The notes under the pieces: model-generated
Told to the model about the DNA's origin: nothing
Seen by the model: only the letters and a program-made list of their open reading frames with translations
Database searches by the model: none
DNA from: Myxococcales bacterium
Lineage (GTDB): Bacteria > Myxococcota_A > UBA9042 > JABWCM01
Reading direction: 5' to 3'
Length of the DNA stretch: 64,000 nucleotides
Assembly: GCA_013360285.1 (NCBI GenBank)
Contig: JABWCM010000005.1
Location: forward strand, 2,149-66,148
Position numbers and translations under genes: made by a program
Part shown: positions 1,115 to 27,371 of the stretch, piece by piece
Position numbering within the stretch: position 1 is the stretch's first letter
Layout: every line of letters starts with the position of its first letter

Positions 1115-1273
1115 AAGAGGGTGTTTGGGAAAAAAATAAGCTGCGTGAGCCATTGGCCTACTGCGTCGGTCCTGCCTCGGTCGGCCCATCCTCAGCGTAC
1201 CTTCGGGTACGCCTCCGGTGGGCCTCGGTCGGCAGGCCCGCCTCGTATTTTTTTCACAAACACCCTCTAAACA
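1115..1273. mobile_element. MITE-like element: 25-bp terminal inverted repeats around a structured ~105-bp core
   Basis: Left end AAGAGGGTGTTTGGGAAAAAAATA (1115-1139) and right end TATTTTTTTCACAAACACCCTCTAAACA (1246-1273) are near-perfect reverse complements. The core carries the direct repeat CCTCGGTCGGC twice and a GTACC-UUCG-GGTAC tetraloop hairpin (1197-1210). It is non-coding and sits in the 690-bp gap upstream of the CoA-ligase gene. Confidence 0.5.
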
Positions 1274-19280: not shown

Positions 19281-22190
19281 TCAGAATCCAGTGCCGCTGA
19301 CAAAATAACATTGCAATATCCCAACTTCGCCTAGGCCGTGGGCGATTCCGAGCCGAAAATGGGTTGCGTGGCCGGTCAACAACGTTGCCGCGGTGCGCAG
19401 TTCTGCTCCAAGACTCATGTGCCAGGGCGCGCTACGGAGCGATTCACCGGTTGCCGTTCCGACGTCAAAAAAGAGCGCAGCGTGTAGCCTTTCTATGAAA
19501 AACGGCAAACTAGTGAATCCATCGTGGATGTACCAGACAGGAAAACGATACTCGATATTAAATAAGTGGATCTGGTCACCGCGAAACGCGTCTGGAACAA
19601 ATCCTCGAAGCAAACCGGCACCGAGCCCACGTTCTTCCAAGATATCTTCGACGAGGTCCCTCTCCGGGATGCCGCCAAGGCGAAACCCTTCTTTTCTTGC
19701 CGGGTCGCCGCCGGAAATTCCCCCGTCGTATCGCAGGGCAAAGACATGGGCTCGAGCGTACGGCATGGCAAAATATTCGTTCCACTGCCATCTGGCGGTA
19801 TACGTTAAACTGTCGGAATCCAATAACGATGTTCTGACAACCAACGATGTGCCGAGTCGGCGACCGGTTTCCGGGCTGATTGAATAATAAAAACTCTCCC
19901 TGTTGTCGTATCTCCAACTAAACGAGAAACTGATATTCGTTGCCCCTGTGGGGACATAGGGGATTCCGGTCGCCGGATCAGGGCGCAAAGACGGGGTCTC
20001 TACCAGGAACCCTTTGGAGATATCGACGCGGAAATTGGTTGTAAATGAGCCGGAATTGTTGGGAAACGGCAACGACACGTCAACAGAGCCGAGTGCGACG
20101 TCTTCATCCACCACAACAGTGGTGAAGGCATCAAATGCAATTCTTGGTCGACGAAACCACGCCGCACTGAGTCCTACCGACGGAATATAGTGCTGATTTC
20201 TGTAAGATAAGGCTATCGACGGAAACGGATTTTCGACGTTCCAGTGAGCACCGATAGACCACGTATGCAATTGTACGGCATCGTTTCCGGTCAATTGGAG
20301 TTGTAGAGTCGCATTATCGGGCGATACAAACCTAAATTCCGGCAACCATGTTGCAGGGTAGAGCGTAAACATAGGATTGTATTCGGATTCAGGATAATGA
20401 ATTTGGTTTGGCGAATACCGCCCCCGGGGGGAGAAGTCTTCAAGTGCGACGGTTTTTTGCGCGGTGTCGGCATCCGGAGACGGCGAAAAATCAAGAGCAC
20501 TTTCTGCAAGGTCCCAGCCTTGTGTGCTGTACCGGCTAAATAGGACCGTGGTTCCGTCGGTGGTTGGGTCGACTGCGCCGGTCAGCGTTCGTGTAATTTG
20601 GTGTTTTTCTTTTGTTTTGATGTCCAGCGCAAACAATTCGGGACCGTCTTCTCCAGAAGCTGCGTAGACAACAATCCGCCCATCCGGCGAAAAACTGGGG
20701 GTCATGTCGGCCGCAGCATCCGCCGTCAAACGTGTTACCTGACCGGTGCCCAGTTCTTTTGTATACAAATCCCACACGTTGTTTTTGTGCATCGCAAACA
20801 CAATCCGGCGCCCATCGGGGCTGAATCGCGGATGGATGACCTGTTGCAGCCCAACCGGTGCGACGAGGTCGGTTTCCTGACCCGTGGACAAATCCCGCAG
20901 CACCAGGCGGGAACGTCCATATTGGGATGTGGCAAATACGATGGACCGGCCGTCCGGAGACGGCGTTGGATCGAGAACCCGTCGCCCCCAAGTCAGCCGG
21001 GTGGTTTGTTGTGTTGCCAGGTCATAACGGAAGAGGTCGTCGAAGTGATATACCGTGTCAAATCGTTCACTTCTGGTGAAATAAACCGACATCCCGTCGG
21101 CACTGAAAACGGGCCTGCCACATCCTCCGCGACAGGTGATTACGTCTTGTTCGACGCCGGTTTTTCGATCTCTTATACGCAACGTGCTGATCTGGTCGCC
21201 GGTCGAAGACCGATACACCAGCAGGCGACCGTCTGGGGACAACGACGGGTTCCGTTGAAACTCGCCTTCGGTGGTCAGCGGTGTACCATTTTTTAATCCG
21301 AGTTGTTCTTGGTTAGTCTTCCATCGACCGTACCGAATCTTCAGATCACGGTGCCAGGTCATTTGCATATCGTCCCACGTCGATCCAAACACCTCTTTTG
21401 CGATCGCGTTGTATCCTATGGGCACCAAACGGCGGCTGTATTTTTGCAAAAATAACCGCAATCGGTCTTCTCCGTAGTTTTCCGCCAGAAATGAGATGAA
21501 TGAACCGCCAAAAGCATACCAACCGGTTCTGCGGGGTTGTTCGTGGGGGCTGCCTCCCAACTGGGCAAAACTGGGCAACGTGTCGCCCAAAGCTGCGGTG
21601 CGTAAATACATTTCGAAAAAAGACCGGTGGTTTCGCCCACCGCCGGTTTTTTGGGTCTCAACCCAGGTCGCGAGGCCCTCGATGAACCAGTTGGGAAGAT
21701 TCTGATGGGGGCGCACCGAGAGCCCGATACTGGTCAATAGGCCAGGAATCCCGTCCACCATGTTTAAATGCAGGATGTGGGTGTATTCGTGATACAGCAG
21801 CATTCGTAGATAGTCGTCGGCATCTCCTAGATCACTGTCGGGACCCGGATGAAACGCCAACAACGTGATCAAATTATATCGGTCAACGGATGCATATCCG
21901 TTGGCGTTGTCGCCCGGGTCCACCAATACAATGTTGGTATGAATCGAATCGGCCGTGCCGAAAAACGGCGCAAGGGCATCGTGGGCTTCCTCGGCTATAT
22001 TGGCCGCTTTTCTTCCAATTTCTTCGGCTGAGGCGGGATAGTGTACCGAAAAGTGTTTTGTACTGATCGTACGCCACGAGATCTTTGGATCTGCCGCCAA
22101 CACCTGGGTGATAAACGCTGACTGCCCCAACAAAATCAGCGGGAAATACATCAAGGCAAAAAGGAATTTCGTTTTGGCGGTAACGGTCAC
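19281..22190 (-). CDS. Secreted zinc metalloprotease (HEXXH) fused to TolB-like beta-propeller and C-terminal beta-barrel
   Basis: HEYTHILH zinc motif. Multiple SPDG/FSPDGR WD40-like repeats (SLSPDGRLLVYRS, FSADGMSVYF, FSPDGRRIVFA, FSPDGRIVVYA). The C-terminus has alternating aromatic and beta-strand character and ends ...YFVSGTGF. GTG start with a signal-like N-terminus. Confidence 0.6.
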   Translation of the reverse strand: MTVTAKTKFLFALMYFPLILLGQSAFITQVLAADPKISWRTISTKHFSVHYPASAEEIGRKAANIAEEAHDALAPFFGTADSIHTNIVLVDPGDNANGYASVDRYNLITLLAFHPGPDSDLGDADDYLRMLLYHEYTHILHLNMVDGIPGLLTSIGLSVRPHQNLPNWFIEGLATWVETQKTGGGRNHRSFFEMYLRTAALGDTLPSFAQLGGSPHEQPRRTGWYAFGGSFISFLAENYGEDRLRLFLQKYSRRLVPIGYNAIAKEVFGSTWDDMQMTWHRDLKIRYGRWKTNQEQLGLKNGTPLTTEGEFQRNPSLSPDGRLLVYRSSTGDQISTLRIRDRKTGVEQDVITCRGGCGRPVFSADGMSVYFTRSERFDTVYHFDDLFRYDLATQQTTRLTWGRRVLDPTPSPDGRSIVFATSQYGRSRLVLRDLSTGQETDLVAPVGLQQVIHPRFSPDGRRIVFAMHKNNVWDLYTKELGTGQVTRLTADAAADMTPSFSPDGRIVVYAASGEDGPELFALDIKTKEKHQITRTLTGAVDPTTDGTTVLFSRYSTQGWDLAESALDFSPSPDADTAQKTVALEDFSPRGRYSPNQIHYPESEYNPMFTLYPATWLPEFRFVSPDNATLQLQLTGNDAVQLHTWSIGAHWNVENPFPSIALSYRNQHYIPSVGLSAAWFRRPRIAFDAFTTVVVDEDVALGSVDVSLPFPNNSGSFTTNFRVDISKGFLVETPSLRPDPATGIPYVPTGATNISFSFSWRYDNRESFYYSISPETGRRLGTSLVVRTSLLDSDSLTYTARWQWNEYFAMPYARAHVFALRYDGGISGGDPARKEGFRLGGIPERDLVEDILEERGLGAGLLRGFVPDAFRGDQIHLFNIEYRFPVWYIHDGFTSLPFFIERLHAALFFDVGTATGESLRSAPWHMSLGAELRTAATLLTGHATHFRLGIAHGLGEVGILQCYFVSGTGF

Positions 22191-22512
22191 AGTTACAAAA
22201 CATACCGAACCGTGTCTCCATTCGATAGTCCGAAGTTGTTCAAATCCGTTTTTTGAATCATGGCACCGGCTTTACACAAGAGTTTGTCAACGCGTTTAAG
22301 CCCATCAGAAAAACCGGCGGGAGTCCGGCGCGGAGATTTTTCCGCGCGAAGCGGCCAAGATGTGGGATTCATCTAACAGCGCCATACACCGTTTCCGTTT
22401 TGTAACCATTTCCCGCTGATTTGCTCTTGCGCGTCTCAAAAAACGTATGGTAACGCTAACCATACGCAAGCTTTAGTACGCTGCGTTTCAGCAACACAAA
22501 CGGAGGTAGAGG

Positions 22513-23310
22513 ATGAGTTTGGATAAAATGATGACCAATCGGCGGCAGTGGTCCGACCATTTGGTTGCTGCCGGGAAGTCCCATGCGCCGGCGTTGGCGG
22601 AGAAACTGGCGGCCGAGTCGTTGGCTTGCGGGATCAACCCTCCCGACGGTCTTGACGCGGTGATTCTTTGGCTGGCCGGCCTGCTCCAGTACCGAACGGG
22701 CGCGATGGTTGCCGCCGAAACTGCCTTGAATCAAGAGGCAGTCGACGATGTGCCCTATCGTGAAGCCCGCGATGGTGCGGCAGTGGAGTTGTACACACTT
22801 CTTTCCGGGGTTCGGACGGCGGCGTCGCTCCAATCGAATGCGCTTGCCGAGAAATGGATGGTCAAAATGCCGGTCCCCGAAACGGCGTCGCTTCTTTATA
22901 CCTACGGCAAAAACGTGTCTGGTGCGTTGTCATCCGACGCCCAAACCTACAAACTGATAGGCGGCCTCACGTTCATTCCTCAAGAAGCCGCCCAGGCCCT
23001 GAAATCCCCTCTCGACACGTTGGGCCAAGCCTTGGACGACCTTGCCCGCGAAGGACACGAATGGAACGCGGCACTCAACCTCCGCGACCTCACCATCGCC
23101 GACTGGGCACGCAGCTATTCCGGGCTCGGACACATTTTCGAAGGGCTCTTTTTATTGGTAAACGAACCCCTGCTGGCCGACCGTGCCCGACCTACGATCC
23201 GCAAACGGCGAGGCGAAGAAATAGCGCCACCGTTACCCACCACTCAAGCCGACGCCGCTACCGTCACCCCGACCGAACCCACAACCGTCACCCCGTCCGA
23301 ACCTGCGTAA
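22513..23310 (+). CDS. Hypothetical protein
   Basis: GGAGG 6 nt upstream of the ATG, good coding statistics and a Pro/Thr-rich C-terminal tail. No family recognised. Confidence 0.45.
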   Translation: MSLDKMMTNRRQWSDHLVAAGKSHAPALAEKLAAESLACGINPPDGLDAVILWLAGLLQYRTGAMVAAETALNQEAVDDVPYREARDGAAVELYTLLSGVRTAASLQSNALAEKWMVKMPVPETASLLYTYGKNVSGALSSDAQTYKLIGGLTFIPQEAAQALKSPLDTLGQALDDLAREGHEWNAALNLRDLTIADWARSYSGLGHIFEGLFLLVNEPLLADRARPTIRKRRGEEIAPPLPTTQADAATVTPTEPTTVTPSEPA

Positions 23311-23395
23311 TTCTCCAATTGCCCGACCGGGAGAGCCGTTTCGGCCGCACGAGGTCACCTCGCGCCGGCGGAAAGGCGTCTTGTGACCCTCCCTT

Positions 23396-23700
23396 TCGTT
23401 TTTCCGAAATGGGAAAGGCGTTGTCGACTATCAAAAGTCGTCTTTCCCAAATGGGAAAGGTGTTTTTTAAACCCGGATCGTGTTGTGTCACCCGGGAAAG
23501 CCTTTTCCAAAAGCCGGAATCGTCTTTTGCCACAAAAAAAGCCGTTGCCGAAAGTCCGGATCGCCTTTCCCAAATGGGAAAGATGTTCGTGAATGCCGGA
23601 GATTGTCTTTCCCACTTGGGAAAGGCGTTTCCGAACGCCAAAAGTCATCTTTCCCAAACAGGAAAGGTGTTCGCGAATGTCAAAGTCGTCTTTCACAGCC
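23396..23700. repeat. Tandem array of ~8 degenerate ~42-bp units, each centred on the palindrome CTTTCCCAAATGGGAAAG
   Basis: Units begin at about 23396, 23441, 23489, 23523, 23565, 23607, 23649 and 23691. The consensus is CTTTCCCAAATGGGAAAGGYGTTYNNGAATGYCNNAGNNTCGT. The array is non-coding and lies between convergent genes. The small FPKWER-repeat ORFs here are translation artefacts of the DNA repeat. Confidence 0.7.
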
Positions 23701-23835
23701 TCAAAGTTTCCGGAAAAAACACGCCGGAGTTTCCGGAACCCACATCCCGCACCAACAGCATGGTACCAAACCCTGACGCCCGGGGTTGTGCCTGCGCGAT
23801 TTCCGACGGGAGTGGTTTTGTTTCCCGTCCCTGCT

Positions 23836-24174
23836 TTATTGCCGCGCTACGCTACTTTCTGCATGAATTCCGCGATCATAGAACACGACCCCGAAGCGGT
23901 CGATGTGTTTCCGCAACTCCTCGTGATCTAGGTCAGCATAAATAGATAAGTCCACGGTATGGGGAATTGGGGAGTCGTCTAGCCGCGTGGCTATTTTGCT
24001 CAGGACGGCGGCGGTCAATTGGGGGCCGATTAAGGTCAGATCGATATCGGAGCCGGGTTTGTGTGTTCCTTTCGCCCGCGAGCCGTAAAGAATCGCTATT
24101 TCCACTTCGGGGAAATCGGCAAGAATCTGCCGGATGGTGCCCAAAATTCTGGGAGATAATCCGAAGGTGTCCAC
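23836..24174 (-). CDS. Minimal nucleotidyltransferase (MNT) antitoxin-type protein
   Basis: GSRAKGTHKPGSDIDL motif (GS...DxD) of the Pol-beta nucleotidyltransferase superfamily. Length 112 aa. Confidence 0.75.
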   Translation of the reverse strand: MDTFGLSPRILGTIRQILADFPEVEIAILYGSRAKGTHKPGSDIDLTLIGPQLTAAVLSKIATRLDDSPIPHTVDLSIYADLDHEELRKHIDRFGVVFYDRGIHAESSVARQ

Positions 24175-24176
24175 GT

Positions 24177-24581
24177 TTACGGCTCTCCACCGAGCCGCGT
24201 TTGCAAAGCCAGAAAAGCCGGATAATAACGGTCGCGGACGTCGGCAAGAATCGATGACGCCACAGCTTGGTTGTATGTGTGGCTGGAAAGGTTACGGGTC
24301 TCGATCATGTCCATCCAGGCTTCACCATCACCAACCAGCCCCCGTTTGAACGCTTCGCGCGCCGTGCTCCGAGACCCGACAATCCCTTGGATTCCTTCCA
24401 TTTCGAGATAATCCTTCAGCACATTCCAAGCGAGTTCGTGGGTGAACTCAAACCCCTGGATCAATCCTTGCTCTTCCAATTTGGAGAGCGGACGCTGTCT
24501 TAACAGTTCAATAGCCTCCGTCAGGCATTGCAGCGCCCGCTGAAAATTACTGAACCGCTGTTTCCATCGAATGTCGGTCAT
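24177..24581 (-). CDS. HEPN domain protein (HI0074-family nucleotidyltransferase substrate-binding protein)
   Basis: 134 aa, HI0074-like pattern (RWKQRFSNFQRAL...EFTHELAWNVLKDYLE). It sits 2 nt upstream of the MNT gene. Confidence 0.7.
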   Translation of the reverse strand: MTDIRWKQRFSNFQRALQCLTEAIELLRQRPLSKLEEQGLIQGFEFTHELAWNVLKDYLEMEGIQGIVGSRSTAREAFKRGLVGDGEAWMDMIETRNLSSHTYNQAVASSILADVRDRYYPAFLALQTRLGGEP

Positions 24582-24584
24582 CGT

Positions 24585-26354
24585 CTAAGGCTCCAATTCG
24601 AAGACTGCAAAACCCTCCAACATTTCGTCCAGTTCGGAATCTTCGTTTGCCGACGGCGAACGGGATGGCGCGGATGGTGGTACCACCGGCGGGGGTGGAG
24701 TCGTGGGTTTGGGTGAGGTGGTTCCGCTGGGCGGGGAGGGAAACGTAAGATCCAACGCCGGCTTTGTCGCAGCCTGTTCAGCAGCTTTCGCGGCAGCGGC
24801 TTGTTGTTTGTCCTTTTTGATTCGAGCTGCCGGAACCAGGTATCCCTCTACCGCTTCTTTTTCGGCCTCCGCCTTTAATTTAACAATGCTTTCCGGTAAC
24901 ATTGTTGTTTGCATTCGTTCAATACGTTTTTCGGCTTCATCTGTCAGAGGCGAACGTAGTTTTTTTAGAATGGGTCTTGCTTGGATAAGGCTTTTGTAGG
25001 CAAGGTCATACTGGTAACGTTCTTCGGCAACATGTGCCAGTTGCATGAGACTTGCTGCTAATCCTCGGTCGTCTTTTAGATACGCTTCGAGTTCGACGGA
25101 ACGTAAATAACAGTCTATTGCCGTGTCATACTCGGCACGAAAAAAATGGACGTTTCCCAATTGGTGTAACGTCGCGGCGACCCCCGGTAGGTCGTTGGCT
25201 GCTTCTTTGATCATCAACGAGTGGTTGTACAAATCCCGTGCTTCAACCCATTGCTGTTTTCTTTCCATCAAGCGGGCTCGATGATGGAGTACGCGGGCCA
25301 TTCTTTGGTTGTCACCTGCTGTTTTTGCCAATTTTTCCGCCTCTTCCAACATGTTTTCCGCTTCTTGAAGTTTGTTACACCTCTCGAGAAGCATGGCGAA
25401 ATGACGGCTCGCGTCGCAGATACGAATCGGGTCTCCGACCACACGTTCTAATTGTAAGGCGATTTCCAAGAGTTTTTCTGCTGCATCGTAGTCGCCATCT
25501 TGGAATCGGAGTGAACCTAGTTTCCCGTTGATCGAAGCGAGTCCCCTTTTTGATGAAGTGGTTTTCCATTGTTGTAACGATTCGTTGTACCAATCCTCGG
25601 CGGCCCGCCGGTCACCTCGATGTTCCGCTACAGCGCCCAATATTTGCAGGGCTTCGGCAACTTCTTCGGTGTGACCTTCACTTTTGAGTTCCTGAATCGC
25701 CGAAAGTACTTTTTCCGCTGATTCGAGATCACCCACCAAAAAAGCGTCTCGGCAAGCCCGAAAGATCACACCACCTCGTTCTGGGCTTTTCGGTCGCTTC
25801 AACGCATCATGAAGGCGTGCCCGGATCGGACCCCATTGCTCGGTGCCCGGAATCGGAGCGTCATTGGCAGAGCCGGCTTCCTCGGAGGGTTGGGTCGTAG
25901 AGGAATTGGAGGTCCAGGAGACACTTTTGTCCCGACGCGAAAAAAGGTCGGGTGCTGCTTCTGCGAGACGGCGACTTTCTGCGCGGGTAAACAAAAAGAC
26001 GGCCCGGAGATTATGGCGGCGGTATTCTCCACGATTTACCGACAAATGTTGCGCTGCACCTTCCGAAAGGACTTTTACCAGACAAAAAACCCTGCGAGAC
26101 CGTTGGGCATCACGCAAAACATCCAGTGGGTCATCGGAATCGTTCAGCGTCAATACTTCCCAACGGACATGTCGAGAGAACCGAACAATCGCCGCTTCGG
26201 CTTCCTCACGGGCGTTTTCATCGTCACATCGTACCAAAACGGTTGCGTCACGATTCTCCGTTACGGCATCGGCTAGTGTTTGCGCGATATCCAACAGTAT
26301 CTGTTTTTTGGCAGAGGTGGACATAAGATGTTCCCGTGTGTTATTCGCCCACAA
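24585..26354 (-). CDS. TPR-repeat protein with an unassigned ~150-aa N-terminal domain and Pro-rich acidic C-terminus
   Basis: At least 8 TPR units in the central ~350 aa. The C-terminus is TTPPPPVVPPSAPS...ELDEMLEGFAVFELEP. Its stop is 3 nt before the HEPN start. Confidence 0.5.
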   Translation of the reverse strand: MWANNTREHLMSTSAKKQILLDIAQTLADAVTENRDATVLVRCDDENAREEAEAAIVRFSRHVRWEVLTLNDSDDPLDVLRDAQRSRRVFCLVKVLSEGAAQHLSVNRGEYRRHNLRAVFLFTRAESRRLAEAAPDLFSRRDKSVSWTSNSSTTQPSEEAGSANDAPIPGTEQWGPIRARLHDALKRPKSPERGGVIFRACRDAFLVGDLESAEKVLSAIQELKSEGHTEEVAEALQILGAVAEHRGDRRAAEDWYNESLQQWKTTSSKRGLASINGKLGSLRFQDGDYDAAEKLLEIALQLERVVGDPIRICDASRHFAMLLERCNKLQEAENMLEEAEKLAKTAGDNQRMARVLHHRARLMERKQQWVEARDLYNHSLMIKEAANDLPGVAATLHQLGNVHFFRAEYDTAIDCYLRSVELEAYLKDDRGLAASLMQLAHVAEERYQYDLAYKSLIQARPILKKLRSPLTDEAEKRIERMQTTMLPESIVKLKAEAEKEAVEGYLVPAARIKKDKQQAAAAKAAEQAATKPALDLTFPSPPSGTTSPKPTTPPPPVVPPSAPSRSPSANEDSELDEMLEGFAVFELEP

Positions 26355-26586: not shown

Positions 26587-27189
26587 TTATTGCCCGCCGC
26601 CGGCCGGGGGTGCGCCGGTGGGAACCGCTCCGCCCGCTGCGCCGGCGGCCGCGGTTAACGCTGCCATCGATTGTTTTAAGCCGTCGTAGGCTGCTTTACA
26701 GCCGCTTTCCGCGCTGACAAAATAACCTTCCGGAACATTCGGTGGTACATTTTTCTCCATTCCGTCAATTCCCTGAAGCCACGCGCCGCAAGCTTGGCCT
26801 ACGCCCGCAGTATCTTTGTTTTTCTCGCAAAATTCACGGACACCTGACATATACGCTTTACATTCGGGGCCCCACGCTGCACCGGCGTTCGCTGCGGCGC
26901 CTTCGGTGGGTTTGGCTTCTTCGGTCGGTTTGGCTTCTTCGGTTGGTTTGGCTTCCTCGGTCGGTTTGGCCTCTTCCGTTGGTTTGGCCTCTTCCGTTGG
27001 TTTGGCTTCCTCGGTTGGTTTGGCTTCCTCGGTTGGTTTGGCCTCTTCGGTTGGTTTGGCCTCTTCGGTTGTAGCCGCGCCGCCTTTGTTTGAGGCGGGA
27101 GCAGCGGTCTGCTCTTTCTTACATCCCGCGCTCAACGCCATGGCGCCCGCAATCATTGCCACGGTCACGCATCGCATCCACAGTTTCAT
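26587..27189 (-). CDS. Lipoprotein with 9 tandem TEEAKP repeats
   Basis: Lipobox LSAGC. (TEEAKP)x9 is encoded by an 18-bp DNA tandem repeat. The C-terminal domain has 4 Cys. Confidence 0.55.
   Translation of the reverse strand: MKLWMRCVTVAMIAGAMALSAGCKKEQTAAPASNKGGAATTEEAKPTEEAKPTEEAKPTEEAKPTEEAKPTEEAKPTEEAKPTEEAKPTEEAKPTEGAAANAGAAWGPECKAYMSGVREFCEKNKDTAGVGQACGAWLQGIDGMEKNVPPNVPEGYFVSAESGCKAAYDGLKQSMAALTAAAGAAGGAVPTGAPPAGGGQ
26897..27072. repeat. 18-bp tandem repeat (x9-10) inside the lipoprotein gene
   Basis: Repeats of TTCGGTTGGTTTGGCCTC (minus-strand coding for EEAKPT) with synonymous variation. Confidence 0.8.
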
Positions 27190-27371
27190 GCTGGTCTCCT
27201 GGTTTATTGGTAGGTTTTGTGGGCAGCGTTGTCTGCTTTGCGCCACAATGTCAGCCGAACTTGCTCCGCAATTCTACGGTTGTTCAACAAACGGACAATG
27301 GATGCCACATGTCTTCAATTTGCGCAATATTTCGACACCCGTTCTTTTATTCCCAGTGCTGATGCTCGCTT

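Follow-up and report, generated by a model that had tools for sequence, protein, structure and literature searches.

The described elements that come closest to the array reported here are the CGTC-tagged repetitive extragenic palindromes (REPs). They have a stem of 8–9 bp that starts with two A/T pairs, a loop of 4–5 nt, a 3-nt tail that is mostly CCA and, at one palindrome end, four unpaired nucleotides reading CGTC (or TGTC/CCTC) (PMC3733652). Their families comprise 20 to thousands of dispersed units per genome, found mostly downstream of genes and between convergent open reading frames (ORFs); head-to-head dimers predominate, head-to-tail arrangement is negligible, and clusters are rare, being known for Neisseria dRS3 and Wolbachia (PMC3733652). 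[quoted passage not shown] Here we describe a tandem array of palindromic units between two convergent genes in a 64,000-nt stretch of DNA (the window; positions 2,149–66,148 of contig JABWCM010000005.1, Myxococcales bacterium assembly GCA_013360285.1). No direct precedent for its motif or for 42-bp palindromic arrays was found in the literature searched.

Anatomy and genomic position of the array

The array lies at about positions 23354–23750 of the window. There it fills the gap between two gene ends (23311–23835), with the orphan gene orf265 on its left and a minus-strand operon on its right. It is built of about nine head-to-tail units of 41 or 42 bp, and the aligned units U0–U8 (23354–23727) have the consensus TCGTCTTTCCCAAnnGGGAAAGnnGTTnnCGAAnGnCnnAn. 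Two additional 23-bp half-units of the form TTTCCGGAA form its 3′ end (coordinates in Table 1). A sequence-only reading of this DNA had described about eight palindromic 42-bp units at 23396–23700 between convergent genes. The tandem array and its convergent flanks (orf265 on the plus strand; MNT, HEPN and TPR all on the minus strand) are confirmed, but there are nine units, only five of them with an intact palindrome, the spacing alternates between 41 and 42 bp, and the array is slightly longer than described.

The palindrome TTTCCCAAATGGGAAA, allowing up to three mismatches, gave ten strand-matches in the window, where 1.06 are expected by chance; this count was reached in 0/100 shuffles. 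Nine of the ten lie inside the array, at five sites (23401, 23443, 23566, 23608 and 23650). In terms of units, CTTTCCC-N4-GGGAAAG is kept in U1, U2, U5, U6 and U7 and is degenerate in U0, U3, U4 and U8. Successive units are spaced by 42, 41, 41, 41, 42, 42 and 41 bp, a mean of 41.4 bp or about four helical turns of 10.4 bp each. The self-identity of the array is highest at lags of 42 (0.45) and 41 (0.43), with multiples near 83 and 124, and shows half-period echoes at lags of 62 and 103. Pairwise identity between units is 34–80%, which is why Tandem Repeats Finder reported nothing at the array.

The linkers, about 20 bp long, are partly conserved, as the sequence-only reading had noted for the non-palindromic parts, and are homologous to one another. 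They represent a decayed TTTCC...GGAA copy and fall into two subtypes, one ending in ...CAAAAGT (U1, U6, U7) and the other in ...CCGGAT (U2–U5). In the five good units, which were chosen for their good cores, the core is 93% identical to the consensus and the rest 75%. The U1–U2 block shares 81% identity with the U6–U7 block, and the array therefore grew at least partly by duplication of two units at a time. A covariance model of the unit (R1), run unfiltered over the whole window, recovered nine units with E-values from 1e-9 to 1e-3 plus three weaker reverse-strand echoes inside the array.

The array is stable between strains. Its unit number is constant in eight independent Logan assemblies from several sample series, and the full-length copies among them are 100% identical except for one single nucleotide polymorphism (SNP) in U3. 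The sequence-only reading had suggested comparing relatives for its presence; it is absent from a syntenic relative (L177, from a contig labelled Myxococcota JABWCM01). The PD40 protein of L177 is 42% identical to that of the window, and the gene order amidohydrolase – TPR – PD40 – orf337 – orf757 – orf752 is kept, with TPR directly abutting PD40. HEPN, MNT, orf265 and the array are all missing there (window 22191–24581 compared with L177 8533–12982). The window segment, some 2.4 kb long, is therefore a lineage-specific insertion. The junction between its two halves, at which the two convergent transcription units stop, is occupied by the array. In a closer relative (L176, 77% identity) the contig is cut 268 bp before this junction.

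A REP/BIME-like reading and its difficulties

Our preferred reading, which we put forward tentatively, is that the array is a hairpin minisatellite resembling REPs and bacterial interspersed mosaic elements (BIMEs), produced by tandem duplication at the insertion junction, with outer units that act as terminators or insulators and inner units that are decaying. Its origin by tandem duplication and its function in termination or insulation are what we infer here. A hairpin module, roughly 21 bp long, with a CGTC head, a TTTCCC/GGGAAA stem and a 4-nt loop, would have been multiplied head-to-tail into about nine units of 41/42 bp, each with one strong and one decayed palindrome, and the array would have diverged afterwards. 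U2 with its U-tract would then serve as an intrinsic terminator for orf265, and U7 together with the CCGGAAACTCCGG hairpin would terminate the MNT/HEPN operon. The remaining stack of hairpins would provide a back-up terminator and an insulator, and possibly a 3′-end stabiliser by analogy with proposals for REP/BIME clusters. Units U3, U4 and U8 are in decay and probably without a function of their own.

Several observations are consistent with this reading. The plus-strand hairpins of the five good units have predicted energies of −10.9 to −14.3 kcal/mol, and their stems lengthen to 10 bp through G.T pairs (CGTCTTTCCC/GGGAAAGGCG); in these units G.T outnumbers A.C on the plus strand by 8 to 2. 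A terminator scan finds terminator-like units facing each gene, namely U2 on the plus strand toward orf265, and U7 and the hairpin at 23736–23724, both on the minus strand, toward the MNT operon. For CGTC-tagged REPs, roles in termination, mRNA stability and supercoiling have been proposed, and the units have much in common with them: they too are small palindromes outside genes, have a loop of 4 nt and a CGTC/TGTC head, begin their stem with A/T pairs before going over to G/C pairs, and lie downstream of genes between convergent ORFs. Such REPs can also cluster. Related arrays at other loci often adjoin a gene's 3′ end and, in the way of minisatellites, differ in copy number from strain to strain. 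The heads are CGTC in U2, U4 and U8, TGTC in U6, CGTT in U1, CGCC in U5 and CATC in U7. Because the C and the CG are able to pair with the 3′ side, the head cannot plainly be called unpaired. With BIMEs the array shares palindromes at the 3′ ends of transcription units and conserved linkers; the orientation alternates in BIMEs but not here, where the palindrome comes close to symmetry and a second, decayed palindrome makes up the linker. BrickBuilt is likewise made of intergenic tandem units of about 21–23 nt without spacers, is predicted to form stem-loops and varies in length. It differs in having a leader, a tail and terminal inverted repeats, none of which were seen flanking the window array; its repeat sequence is unrelated, and no extra copies of the window array were seen.

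A number of findings weigh against the preferred reading. The stem is 6–8 bp long, with a core of 6–7 bp, rather than 8–9 bp, the tail is GGC/GGT rather than CCA, and all units are arranged head-to-tail, each carrying the conserved 20-bp linker that CGTC-tagged REPs do not have. REP families are dispersed, but R1 had no further match below E=1 in the 64 kb; other palindrome clusters, for which the sequence-only reading had suggested a search of the genome, were not seen in the window, where the model finds the array units only. As stem length, CCA tail, head-to-head dimers and dispersal all fail, we call the array REP/BIME-like rather than a member of these families; the REP/BIME comparison of the sequence-only reading holds for anatomy and 3′/3′ position. 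Conservation across U1–U8 differs only moderately between core (79%) and linker (67%). When all hairpin-like sites including the half-units are counted, the ratio of G.T to A.C falls to 12:9, and the stems show no covariation, with 75.6% paired cells compared with 72.2% after shuffling (63 of 500 shuffles were as high). Without compensatory changes and with a 12:9 ratio there is no sign of selection on the RNA. Moreover, efficient termination at U2 and at the 23736 hairpin would leave most of the array untranscribed. Finally, a hairpin or terminator role leaves unexplained the strong preference of related arrays for a period of 21/42 bp, to which we turn below.

The symmetry itself points in another direction. 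In U2, U5 and U6 it continues up to a centre of 2 bp (CCCA-NN-TGGG), a feature of no use to an RNA hairpin, and the outer loop bases are complementary in 30/63 distinct loops across families, where 25% is expected. The skew between G.T and A.C is inconsistent across 31 other array loci. Symmetry to the centre, loop complementarity, the 41.4-bp spacing and the lack of signs of selection on RNA make a palindrome that matters at the DNA level, or one that arose by inverted duplication, more likely than an RNA structure under selection.

Related arrays in metagenomes and alternative explanations

A metagenome scan for two TTTCCC-N4-GGGAAA palindromes 22–30 bp apart returned 93 stretches; in a viral collection the same pattern had a single match, a pair not belonging to an array. 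True tandem arrays of 3–13 units with a period of 21/42 bp were present at about 51 loci, forming 27 clusters with unrelated flanks. Periods of 20/40, 23/46, 38, 39 and 45 bp and a 22-bp family were much rarer. The loci vary widely in G+C and gene content, and judged by sample name or composition their hosts seem to include gut Bacteroidales-like, soil and AT-rich bacteria. None of them contains the window linker, R1 giving only marginal matches (E ~0.004). In a genome collection the 18-mer CTTTCCCAAATGGGAAAG gave 57 single, unrelated matches, mostly lone terminator-like hairpins or coding sequence.

Copy number at such loci varies between strains (4.5–9.4 units in the L114 cluster; 5 and 6 units in L105/L129). 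Two arrays switch their arms internally: TTTTCCC-N4-GGGAAAA units give way to AGTCCT-GCAT-AGGATT in L157 (860–1500, reverse strand) and to ATTTCGAG-ACT-CTGGAAAT in L174 (308–764). Both arms change together, and palindromy and the 21/42-bp period stay.

The arrays lie upstream of genes at some loci and abut 3′ ends at others. Gene calling of the flanks based on G+C at third codon positions was unreliable (at L091 the antisense of a response regulator was picked), and no upstream/downstream statistics were taken from it. All-against-all BLASTP of the flanking ORFs and a Pfam survey of 149 ORFs found no neighbouring gene common to the 27 loci. What these comparisons showed were only scattered neighbours, namely three response regulators, two GerE domains, glycosyltransferases, a fadD-like gene and a GlnRS. 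The only recurring association was with fn3 proteins, which at three loci have an array 80–400 bp upstream (Table 1). These proteins of about 205–240 residues are helical in their N-terminal part and carry the fn3 domain at the C terminus, are mutually 15–24% identical and show no relation to orf265.

These arrays bear on the main alternative, which the sequence-only reading had also raised in the form of iterated protein-binding sites and which we consider possible but doubtful: that the window array is a helically phased set of operators. A dimeric DNA-binding protein encoded elsewhere would recognise TTTCCC(A)-NN-(T)GGGAAA and bind cooperatively on one face of the helix, every four turns, or every two if the weak half-units are counted, and the array would serve as a nucleation, roadblock or titration site. 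The mean spacing close to four turns of 10.4 bp, the echoes at 62 and 103 bp, the decayed TTTCC...GGAA copies in the linkers, the symmetry to the centre with its complementary loops, and the lack of strand bias in G.T versus A.C are as such a protein would have them. A period of 21/42 is moreover found in about 27–30 of about 48 matched clusters, with 38–46 as the allowed range, and the arrays of L091 (next to a NarL/GerE-type gene) and L122 lie directly upstream of response-regulator genes. One parallel for such binding is SopB on the 43-bp repeats of sopC. Another is BvgA, whose head-to-head dimers follow one another at 22-bp intervals along one helix face (PMC7250471). The BvgA promoter arrays resemble the window array in their inverted TTTCC-type half-sites at a spacing of two helical turns and in their mixture of strong and weak sites, but they have 3–6 sites upstream of a promoter, compared with nine units between gene ends and no regulator nearby (PMC7250471).

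The position of the window array speaks against operators, since between two gene ends there is no promoter to control. No DNA-binding gene is adjacent, orf265 having no recognisable fold or family, and the paralog of orf265 has no array. The 27 array loci lack a common neighbouring gene family, the site is lost in three or four of the nine window units, and the switch of arms at constant period in L157 and L174 argues against a single fixed protein specificity.

It is also possible, though we lean against it, that the array is a neutral by-product, in which a hairpin located where two inserted segments join was expanded by unequal recombination or replication slippage and the copies have been decaying since. 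Units that are 34–80% alike, three or four of them without a palindrome, would be expected in that case, as would stems without covariation. The array lies within an insertion missing from the syntenic relative, related families act as variable-number repeats, and neither 1.84 billion protein-cluster representatives (searched through the array ORF) nor 96 fetched loci yielded a sequence closely related to the 42-bp unit. Against a neutral origin stand the near-perfect state of five palindromes, with a core at 93% against 75% for the rest in units chosen for good cores, the symmetrical placement of terminator-like units toward both genes, and the invariance of the array in eight assemblies from several sample series.

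We think it rather unlikely that the window array is a decayed member of a widespread class, undescribed in the literature we searched, of phased 21/42-bp TTTCC(C)-N4-6-(G)GGAAA arrays. If it were, such arrays might be where some broadly conserved protein that binds DNA or handles its topology is loaded or bound, or else the footprint of a repeat-generating mechanism. The window array alone matters little, as it is lineage-specific, partly decayed and probably has a terminator or insulator role. The wider point, from a scan of one palindrome, is that a 21/42-bp period is favoured by arrays of this palindrome in many bacteria unrelated to one another. Should controls bear this preference out, it would point to a DNA-level constraint (helical phasing) on one class of bacterial minisatellites so far discussed mainly as RNA hairpins, and would give a simple sequence signature for finding them.

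A functional RNA array is very improbable. It could be a guide array of the TIGR (tandem interspaced guide RNA) type that has orf265 as its Tas-like protein, a type III antitoxin RNA directed at the HEPN toxin, or a small RNA acting as a protein sponge. TIGR arrays have 5–15 units of about 36 nt beside a tas gene and end in a terminator; their repeats alternate between edge and loop types of 8–12 nt with UG...CCA and separate two variable spacers of about 9 nt (PMC12045711). This system deserved serious consideration, since the gene directly upstream of the array on the same strand is a small all-helical orphan. The nine units of 41–42 nt are close to TIGR arrays in size and number, a terminator follows as it does there, and the array adjoins a HEPN RNase toxin. 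Inspection by eye revealed no alternating UG...CCA edge/loop (box C/D) repeats and no CCA-N9-TG intervals on either strand. Instead, the unit consists of one 18–22-bp palindrome and a partly conserved linker, with few variable positions and two shared linker types where pairs of unique 9-nt spacers would be expected. orf265 has no Nop match in Pfam, NCBIfam or PDB sequences, its paralog has no array, and TIGR-Tas was rejected. An Rfam scan of 22000–25000 gave only sub-threshold chance matches, no promoter was found upstream of the array, and its stems lack covariation. In type III toxin-antitoxin RNAs (ToxI-like), near-identical tandem repeats of 34–45 nt stand directly upstream of a ToxN/AbiQ-type gene with a terminator between them. 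This too was rejected, as the repeats here are too diverged, both neighbouring operons have the array on their downstream side, and a ToxN-like gene is missing.

We give next to no credence to a coding repeat of 14 residues (RLSQMGKxF...) in the frame of the ORF at 22854–23945. Frame +0 is open through the whole array, the 123-bp spacing from U2 to U5 keeps the good units in frame, and two products, P0003 (178 residues) and P0004 (84 residues), are found in a protein collection. This ORF, however, overlaps orf265 in another frame and MNT in antisense and has no Pfam match, and codon differences between units are mostly non-synonymous by eye. A phmmer search of the 1.84 billion representatives returned only the ORF itself and unrelated repeat proteins, and long ORFs across arrays at other loci are antisense artefacts. 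The reverse strand yields a similar peptide because the DNA is palindromic. The array is non-coding, and the public gene calls P0003 (23409–23945, plus strand) and P0004 (23677–23931, plus strand), translations of the array and antisense MNT, are very probably spurious.

CRISPR arrays have near-identical repeats of 23–50 bp separated by unique spacers of similar length. In agreement with the sequence-only reading, a CRISPR array was rejected, the whole period here being only 41/42 bp, the units degenerate (34–80% alike), and the linkers mutually homologous in two subtypes rather than unique. In the sopC centromere of the F plasmid, a 43-bp repeat stands in tandem 12 times over, and SopB binds a 7-bp inverted repeat in every copy; the geometry of sopC is closely matched here by tandem units of about 42–43 bp with a 16-bp palindrome of 7-bp arms directly downstream of a gene. 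The partition site that the sequence-only reading had offered as one option was nevertheless rejected: no parA/parB gene is adjacent within about 5 kb, the upstream gene lacks ParB features, the units are strongly diverged, and the locus is chromosomal with synteny to L177.

As a separate observation, one metagenome (OHBE01) contains a dispersed family of 4–6 tandem 22-bp units, AAAAGTTTCCC-N4-GGGAAAC, on at least 18 contigs (including L092, L103, L107, L111, L119, L123, L125, L131, L133, L141, L143, L150, L155, L160, L161, L169 and L171). It resembles BrickBuilt or REP clusters. Just downstream of paired ORFs (about 1,140 and 630 residues) lie two of its clusters; judged by size alone, these ORFs could encode SusC/SusD-like proteins.

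Neighbouring genes and other elements of the window

The features of the array, its neighbours and the fn3 loci are collected in Table 1. Within about 5 kb the array is accompanied by genes for a PD40/Omp85-like protein, orf265, MNT, HEPN, TPR and an amidohydrolase. The proximity to the TPR-HEPN-MNT module stated in the sequence-only reading is real; no functional link between array and module was found.

Table 1. Positions of the array units, predicted terminators, neighbouring genes and fn3 protein loci (window coordinates unless a locus is named).
Feature	Position	Strand	Remarks
U0	23354..23395	+	Degenerate first unit, right arm GGAAAGGCG retained; R1 model 21.8 bits
U1	23396..23437	+	Palindrome TTTCCGAAATGGGAAA, 1 mismatch; linker type ...CAAAAGT; + strand hairpin −11.2 kcal/mol
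U2	23438..23478	+	Perfect palindrome; 10-bp stem then TTTTTT; intrinsic-terminator-like for orf265
U2 terminator match	23439-23462	+	Tail TTTTTTAAAC; terminator scan
U3	23479..23519	+	Degenerate, left arm lost; SNP 23506 T>C in L009
U4	23520..23560	+	Degenerate (CTTTTGCCACAAAAAAAG)
U5	23561..23602	+	Perfect palindrome; linker type ...CCGGAG
U6	23603..23644	+	Palindrome with centre CT (CTTTCCCACTTGGGAAAG)
U7	23645..23685	+	Palindrome TTTCCCAAACAGGAAA; − strand terminator-like, faces MNT operon
U7 terminator match	23666-23649	-	Tail ATGACTTTTG; terminator scan
U8	23686..23727	+	Degenerate last unit; R1 model 25.3 bits
Half-units, two of 23 bp (AGTTTCCGGAA...)	23705..23749	.	Contain − strand terminator-like hairpin CCGGAAACTCCGG, then T run
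CCGGAAACTCCGG hairpin terminator match	23736-23724	-	Terminator scan
orf265	22513..23310	+	All-helical orphan protein, upstream of array
MNT nucleotidyltransferase	23836-24174	-	Pair with HEPN; matches of the pair: Pfam Polbeta/NTP_transf_2 and NTase_sub_bind, TIGR01987 and MntA
HEPN / HI0074-type	24177-24581	-	Pair with MNT; matches as in the row above
TPR protein	24585-26354	-	Gene of the MNT/HEPN/TPR minus-strand operon
Lineage-specific insertion	22191..24581	.	orf265 + array + MNT + HEPN; between TPR and PD40 genes adjacent in L177
fn3 protein, L084	3297-3911		Unrelated flanking DNA
fn3 protein, L157	146-865	-	Unrelated flanking DNA
fn3 protein, L164	1507-2130		Unrelated flanking DNA

The protein orf265 has no match in Pfam, NCBIfam, PADLOC, PHROGs or PDB sequences, and one paralog was found among 5.8 billion proteins. 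Its AlphaFold model has a mean pLDDT (the per-residue confidence score) of 38 and is therefore unusable for a fold search. The paralogous segment corresponds to window 22392–23279 at 77.5% nucleotide identity, and the match stops about 30 nt before the stop codon. The 240 nt that follow the paralog contain no array-like sequence, so duplication of the gene did not include the array. About 120 nt upstream of orf265 are also conserved with the paralog (window 22392–22512, L075 116–237), and the window copy contains an 8-bp inverted repeat, CGTATGGT-N7-ACCATACG. This segment could be a shared promoter or 5′ leader of the orphan gene family.

Another gene missing from L177 is orf219 (26587–27246, minus strand). 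Its interior contains an 18-bp tandem repeat (26901–27071, 9.5 copies of CTTCGGTTGGTTTGGCTT, 91% matches), which, lying inside this ORF, would encode a repeat of six residues.

A MITE-like element of about 153 bp was seen at window 1116–1268, with terminal inverted repeats of about 22 bp, AGAGGGTGTTTG(G/T)GAAAAAAATA. Its two ends match exactly, where 0.01 such matches are expected. In eight assemblies (L074–L081) the short contigs with the orf265 paralog have copies of these ends at their borders, which indicates that the element is dispersed in this genome and breaks assemblies.

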